Origin: Escherichia coli
GTDB taxonomy: Bacteria > Pseudomonadota > Gammaproteobacteria > Enterobacterales > Enterobacteriaceae
Assembly: GCF_003018115.1 (NCBI RefSeq)
Contig: NZ_CP027457.1
DNA: 64,000 nt
Strand: one strand, 5' to 3'
The notes under the pieces are model-generated. The model worked only from the letters and a program-made list of their open reading frames with translations, had not been told where the DNA came from and did not search any database. This document shows, one piece after another, positions 2,661-53,018 of this stretch. The stretch's first letter is position 1. Each line of letters begins with the position of its first letter. The translations under genes were made by a program, and so were the position numbers.

Positions 2661-3917
2661 ATGAGCATCGCGATGCGCTTAAAGGTAATGTCCTTTTTGC
2701 AATATTTTATCTGGGGGAGCTGGCTGGTTACCCTCGGCTCTTACATGATTAATACCCTTCATTTCACCGGCGCTAATGTTGGCATGGTTTACAGTTCCAA
2801 AGGGATCGCCGCGATTATTATGCCTGGTATAATGGGGATCATCGCAGACAAATGGCTGCGTGCAGAACGTGCATACATGCTATGTCACCTGGTGTGTGCG
2901 GGCGTACTTTTTTATGCGGCATCCGTAACTGATCCGGATATGATGTTTTGGGTGATGTTAGTCAATGCGATGGCGTTTATGCCGACTATTGCGTTATCGA
3001 ACAGCGTCTCTTATTCCTGTCTTGCCCAGGCAGGGCTTGACCCGGTGACCGCTTTTCCGCCCATTCGCGTTTTTGGTACGGTGGGGTTCATTGTCGCGAT
3101 GTGGGCAGTAAGCCTGCTGCATCTGGAATTGAGTAGTCTGCAGCTGTATATCGCGTCCGGTGCGTCATTGCTGCTGTCGGCTTATGCGCTGACTTTGCCG
3201 AAGATTCCGGTTGCGGAGAAAAAAGCGACCACATCGCTTGCCAGCAAGCTGGGTCTGGATGCCTTCGTGCTGTTTAAAAATCCACGCATGGCCATCTTTT
3301 TCCTCTTTGCCATGATGCTGGGTGCGGTACTGCAAATTACCAACGTTTTTGGTAATCCGTTCCTACATGATTTCGCCCGTAACCCGGAGTTTGCTGACAG
3401 TTTTGTGGTGAAATATCCCTCCATTTTACTGTCAGTTTCACAGATGGCAGAAGTGGGCTTTATACTGACTATCCCATTCTTTTTAAAGCGATTTGGCATT
3501 AAAACCGTCATGCTGATGAGTATGGTGGCCTGGACGCTGCGCTTTGGCTTCTTCGCCTATGGCGATCCGTCAACAACCGGATTTATTTTGCTGCTGCTGT
3601 CGATGATTGTTTATGGCTGTGCATTCGATTTCTTCAATATTTCTGGTTCGGTATTTGTCGAACAGGAAGTTGATTCCAGCATTCGTGCCAGCGCGCAGGG
3701 GCTCTTTATGACCATGGTAAATGGTGTCGGCGCATGGGTTGGCTCGATTCTGAGTGGCATGGCAGTAGATTACTTTTCGGTGGATGGCGTAAAAGACTGG
3801 CAAACTATCTGGCTGGTGTTTGCAGGATATGCTCTTTTTCTCGCAGTGATATTTTTCTTTGGGTTTAAATATAATCATGACCCTGAAAAGATAAAGCATC
3901 GAGCGGTGGCTCATTAA
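2661..3917 (+). CDS. xapB: xanthosine/nucleoside:H+ symporter (MFS, NHS family)
   Basis: 418 aa polytopic membrane protein downstream of xapA. Confidence 0.93.
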   Translation: MSIAMRLKVMSFLQYFIWGSWLVTLGSYMINTLHFTGANVGMVYSSKGIAAIIMPGIMGIIADKWLRAERAYMLCHLVCAGVLFYAASVTDPDMMFWVMLVNAMAFMPTIALSNSVSYSCLAQAGLDPVTAFPPIRVFGTVGFIVAMWAVSLLHLELSSLQLYIASGASLLLSAYALTLPKIPVAEKKATTSLASKLGLDAFVLFKNPRMAIFFLFAMMLGAVLQITNVFGNPFLHDFARNPEFADSFVVKYPSILLSVSQMAEVGFILTIPFFLKRFGIKTVMLMSMVAWTLRFGFFAYGDPSTTGFILLLLSMIVYGCAFDFFNISGSVFVEQEVDSSIRASAQGLFMTMVNGVGAWVGSILSGMAVDYFSVDGVKDWQTIWLVFAGYALFLAVIFFFGFKYNHDPEKIKHRAVAH

Positions 3918-49929: not shown

Positions 49930-51177
49930 ATGGCACTGAATATCCCATTCAGAAATGCGTACTATCGTTTTGCATCCAGTTACTCATTTCTCTTTTTTAT
50001 TTCCTGGTCGCTGTGGTGGTCGTTATACGCTATTTGGCTGAAAGGACATCTAGGGTTGACAGGGACGGAATTAGGTACACTTTATTCGGTCAACCAGTTT
50101 ACCAGCATTCTATTTATGATGTTCTACGGCATCGTTCAGGATAAACTCGGTCTGAAGAAACCACTCATCTGGTGTATGAGTTTCATCCTGGTCTTGACCG
50201 GACCGTTTATGATTTACGTTTATGAACCGTTACTGCAAAGCAATTTTTCTGTAGGTCTAATTCTGGGGGCGCTCTTTTTTGGCTTGGGGTATCTGGCGGG
50301 ATGCGGTTTGCTTGACAGCTTCACCGAAAAAATGGCGCGAAATTTTCATTTCGAATATGGAACAGCGCGCGCCTGGGGATCTTTTGGCTATGCTATTGGC
50401 GCGTTCTTTGCCGGCATATTTTTTAGTATCAATCCCCATATCAACTTCTGGTTGGTCTCGCTATTTGGCGCTGTATTTATGATGATCAACATGCGTTTTA
50501 AAGATAAGGATCACCAGTGCGTAGCGGCGGATGCGGGAGGGGTAAAAAAAGAGGATTTTATCGCAGTTTTCAAGGATCGAAACTTCTGGGTTTTCGTCAT
50601 ATTTATTGTGGGGACGTGGTCTTTCTATAACATTTTTGATCAACAACTTTTTCCTGTCTTTTATGCAGGTTTATTCGAATCACACGATGTAGGAACGCGC
50701 CTGTATGGTTATCTCAACTCATTCCAGGTGGTACTCGAAGCAGTGTGCATGGCGATTATTCCTTTCTTTGTGAATCGGGTAGGGCCAAAAAATGCATTAC
50801 TTATCGGTGTTGTGATTATGGCGTTGCGTATCCTTTCCTGCGCGCTGTTCGTTAACCCCTGGATTATTTCATTAGTGAAGCTGTTACATGCCATTGAGGT
50901 TCCACTTTGTGTCATATCCGTCTTCAAATACAGCGTGGCAAACTTTGATAAGCGCCTGTCGTCGACGATCTTTCTGATTGGTTTTCAAATTGCCAGTTCG
51001 CTTGGGATTGTGCTGCTTTCAACGCCGACTGGGATACTCTTTGACCACGCAGGCTACCAGACAGTTTTCTTCGCAATTTCGGGTATTGTCTGCCTGATGT
51101 TGCTATTTGGCATTTTCTTCCTGAGTAAAAAACGCGAGCAAATAGTTATGGAAACGCCTGTACCTTCAGCAATATAG
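49930..51177 (+). CDS. cscB: sucrose:H+ symporter (MFS, oligosaccharide:H+ symporter family)
   Basis: 415 aa, 12-TM LacY-like protein. Confidence 0.92.
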   Translation: MALNIPFRNAYYRFASSYSFLFFISWSLWWSLYAIWLKGHLGLTGTELGTLYSVNQFTSILFMMFYGIVQDKLGLKKPLIWCMSFILVLTGPFMIYVYEPLLQSNFSVGLILGALFFGLGYLAGCGLLDSFTEKMARNFHFEYGTARAWGSFGYAIGAFFAGIFFSINPHINFWLVSLFGAVFMMINMRFKDKDHQCVAADAGGVKKEDFIAVFKDRNFWVFVIFIVGTWSFYNIFDQQLFPVFYAGLFESHDVGTRLYGYLNSFQVVLEAVCMAIIPFFVNRVGPKNALLIGVVIMALRILSCALFVNPWIISLVKLLHAIEVPLCVISVFKYSVANFDKRLSSTIFLIGFQIASSLGIVLLSTPTGILFDHAGYQTVFFAISGIVCLMLLFGIFFLSKKREQIVMETPVPSAI

Positions 51178-51296
51178 ACGTAAACTTTTTCCGGTTGTTG
51201 TCGATATCTCCATATCCCTCAACCGGAAAATAATAATAGTAAAATGCTTAGCCCTGGTGACTGCTCCCCGCCCTGTCGGGCGAGGCTTCCCACTTC

Positions 51297-52466
51297 TTAA
51301 GCTGCAACCGTCTGTGTGACGGATTTACGCTGGCCTCCATGGGCAGAAACGACGAGTCCCGCCGCTTGTAATTCCAGTATGCCCTTGCGTTTGATGTTGA
51401 GCGCCGCGTTGATATCGCGGTCATGTTCAACTCCACACTCTGGACACTGCCAGATGCGCTTATGTAATGGCATCTCCGACATTTTGTGACCGCAGCAGTG
51501 GCAGATTTTCGAACTGGCGAACCATTGATCCAGTTTCACCAGATGCACACCTTTCTCTGTTGCTTTGTATTCCAGTTTTGTGATGAATCCAGACCATCCA
51601 GCATCGCCTATCGCACGAGCCAGATGGTGATTTTTCATCATATTTGCCGTTTTCAATGTCTCGACAATTACCGCTTGGTTTTCGTCAACAATTGCGCGAG
51701 ATAACTTGTGCTGGAAATCGGCACGGGCACTGGCTACCCGTTCGTGAACGGCTGCAAGTTGTATTCTGGCTTTGCGCCTGTTTGCGCTCCCTTTTTTCTT
51801 ACGGGACAGTGCTTTCTGCTTCCGGCGAAGGTTGCGACTTGCATTGATTAGGTGGCGGGGACTGGCAATTTTATTGCCGTCCGATTTGATGACAAAATGC
51901 GCCAGCCCCATATCCAGCCCTGTCACATTTGATATCAGTGCGGGCTTTGCCGGCGCTTCCATCCCGTCGTCACAGAGTAACGACGCGTAGTATTTCCCGG
52001 TTGCGCTGCGGCTCAACGTGATACTTTTCAGCATTCCCGTAATTTCACGATGTAAACGCGCTTCAATCGGCAAGATTTTCGGTATTTTTATCGCACCATC
52101 AAGGACTTTTATGCCAACACAATGATAGCTCGATTGTCTGCCGTGTTTACTTTTAAAGGTAGGTTTACCTGCTTTCAGTTTCGGATTGAAAAAGTTAGAA
52201 AAAGCCACGTCGAGGTTAATTACCGCCTGCTGCAACGCAATAGAATCATATTCTTTAAGCCATCCATACCGGCGGGATTTCTTCGCCACTGCAAGCAGTG
52301 GTTTGAGGTCTTTACGCGGGTTTAAATTTACGCGGTGCCGCTGGTAAGAATGTTTCTTGATATGCAGAGCTTTGTTGTACGCAAAACGCACTGCACCGAA
52401 CTGGGCGTTGATAAATTCAGCCTGTTCTGGTGTCGGGTAGATGCGTACTTTTGTTGCTCTTAACAT
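51297..52466 (-). CDS. tnpB: TnpB (OrfB) RuvC-like RNA-guided endonuclease of the IS200/IS605 family
   Basis: 389 aa; N-terminal HTH-like region, RuvC-I (GLDMGL), RuvC-II (VIVETLK), zinc ribbon CHCCGH...CPECG, RuvC-III (HDRDINAALNI). Confidence 0.9.
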   Translation of the reverse strand: MLRATKVRIYPTPEQAEFINAQFGAVRFAYNKALHIKKHSYQRHRVNLNPRKDLKPLLAVAKKSRRYGWLKEYDSIALQQAVINLDVAFSNFFNPKLKAGKPTFKSKHGRQSSYHCVGIKVLDGAIKIPKILPIEARLHREITGMLKSITLSRSATGKYYASLLCDDGMEAPAKPALISNVTGLDMGLAHFVIKSDGNKIASPRHLINASRNLRRKQKALSRKKKGSANRRKARIQLAAVHERVASARADFQHKLSRAIVDENQAVIVETLKTANMMKNHHLARAIGDAGWSGFITKLEYKATEKGVHLVKLDQWFASSKICHCCGHKMSEMPLHKRIWQCPECGVEHDRDINAALNIKRKGILELQAAGLVVSAHGGQRKSVTQTVAA

Positions 52467-52522
52467 AATCAGCGCTCATTGATATAATTCTTTTATTTTA
52501 ACGCTTTAGGTGAATATATCAA

Positions 52523-52948
52523 TTGAGTAATCATGATGATTTACTGGCGGGATTTCTCCGCAAACGACACAGTGTCAGTAAGCTGGTTGTGCACCTTATT
52601 TTTACGACAAAGTATCGACGCAAACTATTCGACAGTCAGATGATCGCTCAGTTGCGTGAGGCTTTTGGCTCCGCTGCGGCAAAGCTTGAATGCGAAATTA
52701 TTGAGATGGACGGGGAGCCAGACCATGTACACCTGCTGGTTGCCTACCCGCCAAAACTGGCGGTCAGTGTGATGGTCAATAATTTAAAATCGGTATCATC
52801 ACGTTTGCTACGCCAGCAGAACGCGCATTTACGTATGCAGAGTAAAACGGGGCTTTTGTGGTCGAGATCGTACTTTGTCTGTAGCACCGGAGGGGCAACG
52901 ATTGAAACGCTCAGAGCCTACGTTCAGAGTCAGTCAACACCTGATTGA
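52523..52948 (+). CDS. tnpA: IS200-type Y1 (HuH) transposase TnpA
   Basis: 141 aa; HuH motif HVHLLV, conserved TTKYRR, catalytic Tyr region (SRSYFV). Confidence 0.88.
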   Translation: MSNHDDLLAGFLRKRHSVSKLVVHLIFTTKYRRKLFDSQMIAQLREAFGSAAAKLECEIIEMDGEPDHVHLLVAYPPKLAVSVMVNNLKSVSSRLLRQQNAHLRMQSKTGLLWSRSYFVCSTGGATIETLRAYVQSQSTPD

Positions 52949-53018
52949 TCTTTAAAGCCCTGCGGGCTTTTCGCCTTATATCCCCGCCCGCATTGGGCGA
53001 GGGTTTACGGCGTTTTTC

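Follow-up and report, generated by a model that had tools for sequence, protein, structure and literature searches.

The closest described systems to the element studied here are IS608 from Helicobacter pylori, ISDra2 from Deinococcus radiodurans and ISGst from Geobacillus stearothermophilus. According to the IS608 rule, the left cleavage site (CL) TTAC is matched by the left guide (GL) AAAG and the right cleavage site (CR) TCAA by the right guide (GR) GAAT, with the pairs A+16:T-3 and A+17:T-4 (PMC5934647, PMC3201880). In ISGst, the guide covaries with the TAM and TEM, the donor joints are scarless, and TnpB targets the donor joint (bioRxiv 10.1101/2023.03.14.532601). Transposition of IS200/IS605 elements prefers the lagging-strand template (PMC5027513).

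The 64-kb stretch of Escherichia coli DNA analysed here (the window) contains two short hairpins with matching arms. They are very probably the subterminal imperfect palindromes, left (IPL) and right (IPR), of an ISEc46 element that is intact, measures 1,763 bp and belongs to the IS605 type, with divergent tnpA and tnpB genes. The complete copy occupies 51257-53019 and is oriented along the minus strand, so that its left end (LE) is the high-coordinate end and its right end (RE) the low-coordinate end. RefSeq names the element between the hairpins ISEc46, IS200/IS605-like, and a Y1/HUH TnpA and a TnpB are encoded there, which bears out the initial annotation in its view that the hairpins have the architecture recognized by IS200/IS605 TnpA. 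As recognition sites of TnpA they are what one expects in a catalogued IS, and the architecture is ordinary, well understood and already known.

ISEc46 resembles IS608 in many respects. Both have a Y1 HUH TnpA, hairpins at both ends on one strand, and 4-nt guides 5' of the hairpin feet that follow the same pairing scheme. As judged from the junctions, cleavage of ISEc46 would also occur far from IPL on its 5' side and close to IPR on its 3' side. An A-T follows IPL, comparable to A+42/T+43 of IS608, a second hairpin lies 3' of IPL, and insertion occurs without target duplication. The differences are in detail: the distances between hairpin and end are 17 nt (LE) and 9 nt (RE) in ISEc46 but 19 and 10 in IS608; the target TTAG, the right cleavage site TCAC and the guides AAAC/GAAG replace TTAC, TCAA and AAAG/GAAT; tnpA and tnpB are divergent in ISEc46 and co-directional in IS608; and the stem is irregular through a T·G pair in ISEc46 but through a bulged base in IS608. 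ISEc46 also shares the TAM/TEM and DNA-guide logic with ISGst (Meers et al., bioRxiv 10.1101/2023.03.14.532601). The latter uses TTTAT or TTCAT as TAM, resides in other hosts and has been tested experimentally.

The tnpA gene (52523-52948, plus strand) encodes a Y1 HUH transposase of 141 aa that matches Pfam Y1_Tnp over its full length (E 5.8e-39). In an alignment with the IS608 TnpA structures 2a6m/2vjv (E 3.5e-20), both its HUH motif (DHVHLL) and its C-terminal Tyr (AYVQSQ) fall in register. The tnpB gene (51297-52466, minus strand) encodes a 389-aa member of the RNA-guided endonuclease family with the Pfam domains HTH_OrfB_IS605, OrfB_IS605 and Cas12f1-like TNB, as expected of a TnpB, which combines RuvC-like and zinc-ribbon domains. 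It matches ISDra2 TnpB (PDB 8bf8/8exa) with an E value of 1.3e-74. The RuvC-type D/E/D motifs GLDMG, VETL and HDRDINAALN aligned to the top match, 9yyg, an AI-designed TnpB relative and the only structure against which this alignment was inspected. Divergent promoter-like sites, recognized by consensus match, lie between the two genes (52460-52522): TTAACA-17-TATAAT on the plus strand (11/12, TG) and TTGATA-16-TAAAAT on the minus strand.

Copies of ISEc46 that are full-length (1,763 bp) and 99–100% identical were found in several hundred E. coli genomes, and 455 genomes have a locus covering at least 80% of the ISEc46 query. These copies are annotated as 'IS200/IS605-like element ISEc46 family transposase' and 'InsQ/TnpB', and the most frequent location is between yebE and ptrB. 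A literature search on ISEc46 returned just resistance-genomics papers giving the name.

Three independent empty sites were used for mapping the junctions: IS-less csc flanks, K-12 intS and yebE-ptrB. Other E. coli copies align to window positions 51257-53023. The flanks of csc loci without the IS (E. coli W, O157:H7 and strain 204446) align as far as 51256, and the alignment with K-12 intS starts at 53020. When the corresponding 1,763 bp are removed from the yebE-ptrB copy, the resulting sequence is found uninterrupted in 5,024 genomes. The comparison with K-12 intS and the IS-less csc loci that the initial annotation had proposed thus placed both junctions beside the hairpins, 9 nt (51257) and 17 nt (53019) outside them, in good agreement with the 10–20 nt expected there. 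The empty sites revealed no target-site duplication, and the termini (CGAAAAACG... and ...AGCAGTCAC), as read from the sequence, are not mutual inverted repeats.

Exactly two copies of the motif CCCCGCCC-N4/5-GGGCGAGG are present in the window. On the plus strand, the copy at 51266-51285 reads CCCCGCCCTGTCGGGCGAGG and the one at 52982-53002 reads CCCCGCCCGCATTGGGCGAGG. The looser pattern CCCCGCCC-N3-6-GGGCGAGG gave 2 matches in 64 kb, compared with 0.00 expected from 100 dinucleotide-preserving shuffles. The same arms therefore do lie in the same orientation on one strand at both ends, as had been claimed, and the positions originally given (51268-51288 and 52982-53003) were approximately right but off by 1–3 nt. 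The 8-bp stem had been described as containing one mismatch. This is true of the plus strand, where a C·A mismatch is found, but not of the minus strand, where T and G form a wobble pair at this position. DNA folding placed both short hairpins in the centroid structures, on either strand. The 91-nt left-end region was more stable than its shuffles (z of -2.6 on the plus and -3.7 on the minus strand). The folding energy of the 71-nt right-end region was no better than that of shuffles (z of -0.7 to -0.9), and support for this hairpin was therefore drawn from relatives and not from thermodynamics.

We surveyed 73 loci encoding TnpA relatives, which yielded 57 left ends and 26 right ends of distinct sequence; the latter were found with a lookahead pattern that allowed overlapping GAAG matches and diverged stems. 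The hairpins, the guides, the cleavage sites and the TTAG target are conserved at the ends of these relatives across the gammaproteobacteria. In the window and the 73 related loci the motif is confined to IS ends, with the exception of a single loose-regex match in L031, so it is not the common genomic motif that would have spoken against a role at the ends.

At the left end, IPL (52982-53002, minus strand) reads CCTCGCCC-AATGC-GGGCGGGG and lies 17 nt from the end of the element; the distance between cleavage site and hairpin foot is 16–17 nt at the left ends surveyed. In a set of 36 distinct left ends, pairing of the stem amounts to 99.7% and its T·G is invariant, while the loop is free to vary (3 to 7 nt). 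All but one of the stem variants are one-sided changes to G·T or T·G, which pair on the minus strand only. Since the left stem is almost invariant, covariation support for IPL is limited to these one-sided wobble changes. The left guide AAAC (53003-53006, minus strand) sits directly 5' of the hairpin foot and is present in 57/57 distinct left ends. The target, which is at the same time the left cleavage site and the TAM, is TTAG (53020-53023, minus strand). This tetranucleotide is not part of the element but falls within codons of the intS 5' fragment, and it agrees with the initial expectation of a 4–5 nt target next to one end. TTAG was found at 54/57 distinct left-end flanks from about 40 species, with an information content of zero directly 5' of it. 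All of the E. coli left-end matches listed reach at least 4 nt into the flank.

We also noticed a 4-bp 'clamp' helix that encloses the left guide and IPL. Its 5' strand CGCC (53009-53012) pairs with GGCG (52972-52975), both on the minus strand. Over 36 distinct left ends, 97.9% of the clamp cells are paired, two of the four pairs show compensatory changes (GC/CG; CG/GC/UA), and the covariation score was reached by 0 of 500 shuffles. We know of no description of such a covarying clamp for IS608. A second left-end hairpin (52954-52970; AAAGCCC-TGC-GGGCTTT on the plus strand) begins 6 nt past the tnpA stop codon. It is kept in relatives with other stem sequences, as judged by eye because the alignment register varies among relatives. 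This hairpin may be a tnpA terminator or an analogue of the +46..+60 hairpin of IS608 (PMC5934647); a promoter and terminator scan that applied a T-run rule did not call it a terminator.

At the right end, IPR (51266-51285, minus strand) reads CCTCGCCC-GACA-GGGCGGGG and lies 9 nt from the end. Among 14 distinct stem variants, 108/112 cells are paired on the minus strand compared with 91/112 on the plus strand. Stem position 2 shows a compensatory exchange from C-G to A-T in 6 variants, and position 8 is also compensatory. The right guide GAAG (51286-51289, minus strand) is located directly 5' of the IPR foot and conserved in 25/26 distinct right ends. The last 4 nt of the element are the right cleavage site and TEM, TCAC (51257-51260, minus strand), with cleavage presumably 3' of it. 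AG(C/T/A)AG-TCAC terminates 25/26 distinct right-end variants, with unrelated flanks beyond, and several contigs end precisely at this TCAC boundary. The 26th variant, L044, has AACAG-TTAC instead. The complete layout, GAAG-stem-loop-stem-AGNAG-TCAC followed by unrelated flank, is present in 25/26 distinct right ends.

Applying the IS608 rule to these sites, AAAC and TTAG would form the pairs A1:T-3, A2:T-4 and C4:G-1 at the left end, and GAAG and TCAC the pairs G1:C-3, A2:T-4 and G4:C-1 at the right end. The rule, taken as a check of sequence consistency, gives Watson-Crick partners at all six testable positions of ISEc46. At the pair between position -1 and guide position 4, both partners have changed together relative to IS608, and this is the case at both ends.

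By analogy with IS608 and ISDra2, a TnpA dimer would bind both folded hairpins on the single-stranded minus strand, and the guide tetranucleotides would bring the 3' borders of TTAG and TCAC into the HUH/Tyr active sites. Cuts in the minus strand would fall 17 nt from IPL on its 5' side and 9 nt from IPR on its 3' side. ISEc46 would then be excised as a single-stranded circle, the donor would be precisely resealed, and the circle could be reinserted 3' of another TTAG. IPR probably doubles as the final stem of the guide RNA (ωRNA) of TnpB, which would run into the flank and guide TnpB to empty sites flanked by TTAG.

The putative ωRNA scaffold (51257-51381, minus strand) comprises the tnpB 3' end and the right end. 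RNAalifold with 17 relatives predicted 31 pairs, 15 of which show compensatory changes; the last helix is the IPR stem, and GAAG lies inside another stem. At the right end, this putative covarying RNA overlaps the DNA signals for TnpA. The situation is similar in ISDra2, where TnpB is alike over nearly its full length (8bf8/8exa/8h1j) and an RNA-like structured region likewise spans the tnpB 3' end and right end and stops at the element boundary. However, the TAM of ISDra2 is TTGAT and that of ISEc46 appears to be TTAG, and the putative ωRNA of ISEc46 has no Rfam match. No Rfam family matched 51000-53300 at E<=1, so the RNA cannot be assigned to a known model. Its guide would correspond to the adjoining flank, at about 51241-51256, and the putative target would be TTAG followed by CAGGGCTAAGCATTTT. 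A literature search for a TnpB with a TTAG TAM matched only text on 'TtAgo'.

One could argue that the hairpins are chiefly RNA elements, with the right one forming the ωRNA's 3' stem-loop and the left one belonging to the tnpA 3' UTR or terminator. A covarying multi-stem structure across the tnpB 3' end and right end does have the right hairpin as its last helix, a further left-end hairpin closely follows the tnpA stop codon, and TnpB is close to ISDra2 TnpB. Yet one and the same stem sequence is found at both ends, of which only the right end falls within the ωRNA. In addition, the strand on which the left T·G and its wobble variants pair is the minus strand, antisense to the tnpA mRNA, and only a DNA mechanism of TnpA accounts for the guide/cleavage complementarity and for the constant spacing to the mapped ends. 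We therefore regard this explanation as very unlikely. A dual role of the right end, as TnpA site and as part of the ωRNA, is likely; an exclusive role in RNA is not.

The hairpins define the strand that is transposed, as the initial annotation had recognized without stating which strand this is; it is the complement of the strand on which the motif had been written there. The transposed ('top') strand of ISEc46 would be the minus strand of the window, which is also the sense strand of tnpB. The plus strand of the window has a GC skew of +0.04, so the active strand of this copy is the C-rich one. This strand is the expected leading-strand template, which is the orientation not preferred by the family (PMC5027513). 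At related sites, the skew of the active strand was positive in 34 of 53 cases, a weak and noisy signal (1.4–3 kb flanks). If the plus strand were transposed instead, with the left end on the csc side and the right end on the intS side, the active strand would be the G-rich strand, the presumed lagging-strand template that the family prefers; moreover, the motif forms a hairpin on either strand with similar DNA folding energies. But the conserved 4-nt target would then adjoin the right end on its 3' side and not the left end on its 5' side, the order of the distances would be opposite to that in IS608 (9 nt at the 'LE' and 17 nt at the 'RE'), and the guide/cleavage pairing would fail. The invariant T·G would become C·A and the variants would mismatch, with 91/112 and 45/56 cells paired as opposed to 108/112 and 54/56. 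Finally, the top strand would be the antisense strand for tnpB and its ωRNA, in contrast to ISDra2 and IS608. Transposition of the plus strand is therefore hardly credible.

Chance palindromes or generic hairpins flanking the IS, such as REP-like elements or terminators, are short and GC-rich and would fit the unexceptional folding energy at the right end, but we rejected them as extremely unlikely given the two motifs observed in the window versus none expected in shuffles, the restriction to IS ends in related loci, and the same offsets of the motif from every mapped end in relatives from dozens of species, the most distant of which have a TnpB of only about 40% identity.

The copy in the window, flanked by the intS 5' fragment at the left end and by csc sequence at the right end, has hybrid flanks, an arrangement that is common to only 7 genomes. 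The intS 5' fragment (53020-53300, minus strand) belongs to a prophage integrase cut by ISEc46, as indicated by Pfam Arm-DNA-bind_3 and by comparison with K-12 intS; RefSeq lists it as a pseudogene, and argW, a tRNA-Arg(CCT) gene (53462-53536), lies beside it. The left flank reads intS...TTTAG up to the junction, and the right flank starts with CAGGGC; the bases before this CAGGGC are ...ATTATTAG in all IS-less csc strains examined. Since the two flanks do not stem from one target site, no simple one-step event suffices to reconstruct the insertion of this copy. The hybrid flanks imply that DNA between two TTAG sites was deleted, a prophage-sized segment if the ancestor was like E. coli W. Among 5,426 complete E. 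coli genomes, we found neither a left end joined to a W-type csc flank nor the distal part of intS joined to a right end, and the IS-less joint of intS-TTAG to CAGGGC was not found in the E. coli genomes searched. Because these intermediates are absent, recombination between two copies and a deletion made by TnpA cannot be distinguished.

It is conceivable, if rather improbable, that TnpA itself and not homologous recombination between two IS copies caused the deletion. In this case, the right end would be cut 3' of TCAC, and the left-end guide would capture another TTAG of the same DNA strand, which could be tens of kb distant. The right end would then be linked by strand transfer to the DNA 3' of this second TTAG, and the intervening DNA would be looped out. 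To our knowledge, adjacent deletions of this kind have not been described for IS200/IS605 elements.

There is nothing new in kind at the ends of ISEc46. What we provide is a parts list of this element at the nucleotide level, including the ends, the TTAG target/TAM, the guides, the active strand and the putative ωRNA region. It aids the annotation of junctions and the prediction of TnpB targets, and it helps to interpret the truncated intS and the missing prophage beside the csc sucrose genes in this lineage. The left-end clamp, the overlap of DNA signals and ωRNA at the right end, and the deletion between two TTAG sites are modest leads on single-strand transposition.

The element is ISEc46, an already catalogued member of the IS200/IS605 group. 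Its two genes are divergent and separated by a 56-bp spacer: tnpA (52523-52948, + strand) encodes a 141-aa Y1 HUH transposase (Pfam Y1_Tnp, E 5.8e-39), and tnpB (51297-52466, - strand) a 389-aa protein with HTH_OrfB_IS605, OrfB_IS605 and Cas12f1-like TNB domains (Pfam). TnpA matches the solved IS608 TnpA at E 3.5e-20, and both its HUH motif and its catalytic-helix tyrosine fall in register. TnpB matches ISDra2 TnpB at E 1.3e-74, and its RuvC-type motifs align with those of its top match, an AI-designed TnpB relative. Identical copies are labelled 'IS200/IS605-like element ISEc46 family transposase' and 'InsQ/TnpB' in RefSeq. A promoter/terminator scan found two back-to-back promoter-like sites within 52460-52522: on the + strand TTAACA-17-TATAAT, extended by TG, and on the - strand TTGATA-16-TAAAAT. 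At high coordinates ISEc46 borders on a 5' fragment of the prophage integrase gene intS, which encodes the Arm DNA-binding domain, and beyond it lies argW. At low coordinates its neighbour is the csc sucrose locus, which ends there with cscB (stop at 51177).

The ends of the element could be mapped to the nucleotide. Further E. coli copies align to 51257-53023. The csc loci without the IS (E. coli W, O157:H7 F7386 and strain 204446) match the flank to 51256 and then continue with ctaataatcgcc, while K-12 intS matches from 53020 (...aatcgca/ctaaagg..., the slash marking the junction here and below). At yebE-ptrB, the site of the commonest ISEc46 copy, removal of 1,763 bp with one CTAA kept yields 200 nt that 5,024 of 5,426 genomes carry uninterrupted at 99-99.5% identity. 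The matches of other copies and these three empty-site comparisons place the ends at 51257 and 53019, indicating that ISEc46 spans 51257-53019 without a target duplication. Read on the - strand, the 4-nt sequence TTAG adjoins the high-coordinate end. The initial annotation had proposed this empty-site check at K-12 intS and IS-less csc loci, and had expected a 4-5 nt target next to the left end and boundaries within about 10-20 nt outside the hairpins. The junctions indeed lie beside the hairpins, at 9 nt on the right (RE) and 17 nt on the left (LE). Short fragments consisting of RE only, or of the tnpB 3' part plus RE (matching 51257-51294), are also present at 356-384 places on many E. coli plasmids; one of them adjoins a shufflon recombinase (fragment matches among search hits H8, H39, H40 and H86). 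More diverged ISEc46-like copies, about 80% identical, occur on E. coli plasmids as well (H6, H7).

When the sequence from 50900 to 53400 was read, the right hairpin proved to be CCCCGCCCTGTCGGGCGAGG at 51266-51285 and the left one CCCCGCCCGCATTGGGCGAGG at 52982-53002 (both + strand); the sites first annotated are thus real, but their positions were 1-3 nt off. The pattern CCCCGCCC-N3-6-GGGCGAGG has exactly two matches in the 64-kb window, the two hairpins, and none in 100 dinucleotide-preserving shuffles. Both short hairpins are present in the centroid folds of single-stranded DNA, on the + and the - strand alike. Compared with shuffles, the LE region folds clearly more stably (z -2.6 and -3.7) and the RE region does not (z about -0.8), so that folding energy by itself is not convincing.

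On the - strand, LE reads TTAG/CGAAAAACGCCGT-AAAC-CCTCGCCC-AATGC-GGGCGGGG-ATATAAGGCG and RE reads GAAG-CCTCGCCC-GACA-GGGCGGGG-AGCAG-TCAC/flank, with CCTCGCCC and GGGCGGGG as the stem arms. In IS608, the left cut falls 3' of TTAC, at 19 nt on the 5' side of the left hairpin's foot, and the right cut 3' of TCAA, at 10 nt on the 3' side of the right hairpin's foot; guides directly 5' of the hairpin feet (AAAG left, GAAT right) recognise the cleavage sites, with pairs A+16:T-3 and A+17:T-4 and a single guide A inserted into the protein (PMC3201880; PMC5934647). We infer that guide position 4 pairs with cleavage-site position -1, because this is consistent with both IS608 ends (G:C left, T:A right). 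Applied to ISEc46, the scheme gives Watson-Crick partners at every testable position: A1:T-3, A2:T-4 and C4:G-1 for AAAC with TTAG, and G1:C-3, A2:T-4 and G4:C-1 for GAAG with TCAC. In comparison with IS608, the -1/guide-4 position is altered jointly in both partners at LE and at RE. As in IS608 (base-triple positions A+42/T+43), the two bases following the left hairpin are A-T. The scheme fails on the + strand, where the conserved tetranucleotide would end up 3' of the right end, with the distances reversed. The proposal that the hairpins define the strand of transposition is supported, with the active strand refined to the complement of the one on which they had been written (the tnpB sense strand) and LE to the intS-side end.

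A comparative scan with TnpA, using one genome per species, yielded 73 loci with TnpA identities from 99% down to about 45%, mostly from gammaproteobacteria (e.g. Photorhabdus, Serratia, Pluralibacter, Shewanella, Vibrio, Idiomarina, Endozoicomonas, Oceanospirillum and Halomonas). When the 57 distinct left flanks were anchored on the hairpin, TTAG was found immediately 5' of the conserved LE start in 54, the guide was AAAC in all 57, and the start lay 16-17 nt from the hairpin foot in 55. Directly 5' of TTAG, the information per column drops to zero. An initial boundary heuristic had partly forced the last two bases of the target; the hairpin-anchored profile is free of this bias and gave the same result. 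On the right, 25 of 26 distinct variants show GAAG-stem-loop-stem-AG[C/T/A]AG-TCAC; locus L043 has a GGAG guide and L044 an AACAG-TTAC terminus. Unrelated DNA follows each of the 26 variants, and several contigs break precisely at TCAC. The stems are conserved, unlike the loops, whose length ranges freely from 3 to 7 nt at LE and from 3 to 18 nt at RE. In Idiomarina loihiensis (L031, about 2880-2990, reverse strand), LE is partially duplicated in tandem (leader, guide, hairpin and ATATAAG), the second copy being preceded by TAAG in place of TTAG. The left ends of Idiomarina aquatica and a Nitrincola MAG (L029, L035) carry an insert of ~19 nt (ACAGTGTGCCC(T/C)TTGGGT) between the left hairpin and ATACAAG.

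The stems also retain their pairing. Across 36 distinct left ends that were aligned, the left stem is 99.7% paired on the - strand, and all variants but one alter a single side, giving G·T or T·G. The stem had been described as 8 bp with one mismatch; its length and irregularity stand, but on the relevant - strand the irregularity is a T·G pair, conserved in 36 of 36. The 14 distinct RE stem variants include 6 in which position 2 changes from C-G to A-T, 3 in which position 8 changes to T-A or G-C, and 2 with T-A in place of T·G. More stem cells are paired on the - than on the + strand at both ends (108/112 against 91/112 at RE, 54/56 against 45/56 at LE), indicating that the structure is under selection on the - strand, the tnpB sense strand. 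An IS605-type element would be expected to show this on its 'top' strand.

A further helix of 4 bp (CGCC at 53012-53009 with GGCG at 52975-52972, - strand) forms a 'clamp' at the left end around the guide AAAC, the left hairpin and ATATAA. Its pairing is 97.9% across the 36 left ends, with compensatory swaps at two of the four pairs (GC/CG and CG/GC/UA). Its covariation score was reached by 0 of 500 shuffles, a figure that overstates independence since the sequences are related. The occurrence of three pair types at a single position argues for a real helix; we know of no description of it in IS608. A second LE hairpin, AAAGCCC-TGC-GGGCTTT (52954-52970), lies 6 nt past the tnpA stop, where relatives retain a hairpin with different stem sequences. 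It resembles the IS608 left-end hairpin at +46..+60 and could be its analogue, or simply the tnpA terminator. The promoter/terminator scan did not call it as a terminator.

The flanks of the window copy derive from two different places. The LE flank is intS at codon ~98 (TTTAG/, 53015-53025), and the RE flank is the csc flank (/CAGGGC, 51250-51260). In all IS-less strains examined, ATTATTAG precedes CAGGGC, both in E. coli W, whose csc flank is followed by phage-type genes (torI and others), and in prophage-free strains (compared at L001 3070-3090, L080 2560-2600 and L002 1490-1510). The two junctions occur together only in the same seven complete genomes (F9792, F8111-1SC3, two O169:H41 strains, GF3-3, ET350 and LR882990); neither reciprocal junctions, as intermediates, nor the IS-less joint was found in the complete E. 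coli genomes searched. These hybrid flanks imply that the segment between two same-strand TTAG sites was lost and the IS left at the joint. If the ancestor was like E. coli W, the lost segment would be the size of a prophage. The deletion would be explained either by recombination of two directly oriented copies or by a strand transfer in which TnpA connected RE to a second TTAG. The GC skew of the + strand of the window (+0.04) puts the IS top strand on the C-rich strand, presumably the leading-strand template, an orientation opposite to the family preference (PMC5027513). At 53 related sites, the skew of the flanks is noisy and leans only weakly the expected way (34 positive).

Every family-defining feature that can be read from sequence was found: a Y1 HUH TnpA, subterminal hairpins on the same strand, absence of inverted repeats, a specific 4-nt target that is not duplicated, guides complementary to the cleavage sites, and unequal cleavage distances at the two ends. 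ISEc46 differs from IS608 in gene arrangement, in its tetranucleotides, by 1-2 nt in its end distances and in its stem irregularity, the T·G pair; all these differences stay within a known kind. The comparisons support the reading of the hairpins as TnpA recognition sites. By analogy with IS608, ISDra2 and ISGst, TnpA dimers would bind both folded hairpins on single-stranded DNA, and the guides would place TTAG/ and TCAC/ in the active sites. The top strand would exit as a circle, with the donor resealed to TTAG/flank, and the circle would insert 3' of another TTAG.

The right end may have a second role. The 125 nt at 51257-51381 (- strand), comprising the tnpB 3' end and RE, form a covarying multi-stem fold with 31 pairs, 15 of them compensatory, in which the right hairpin is the final helix and another stem contains the right TnpA guide, GAAG. 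No Rfam family matched this region. The structure is presumably the scaffold of a putative TnpB guide RNA (ωRNA) ending at the element boundary, with a guide that would be read from the flank, here CAGGGCTAAGC... If this reading is right, the right hairpin would serve TnpA as DNA and TnpB as RNA.
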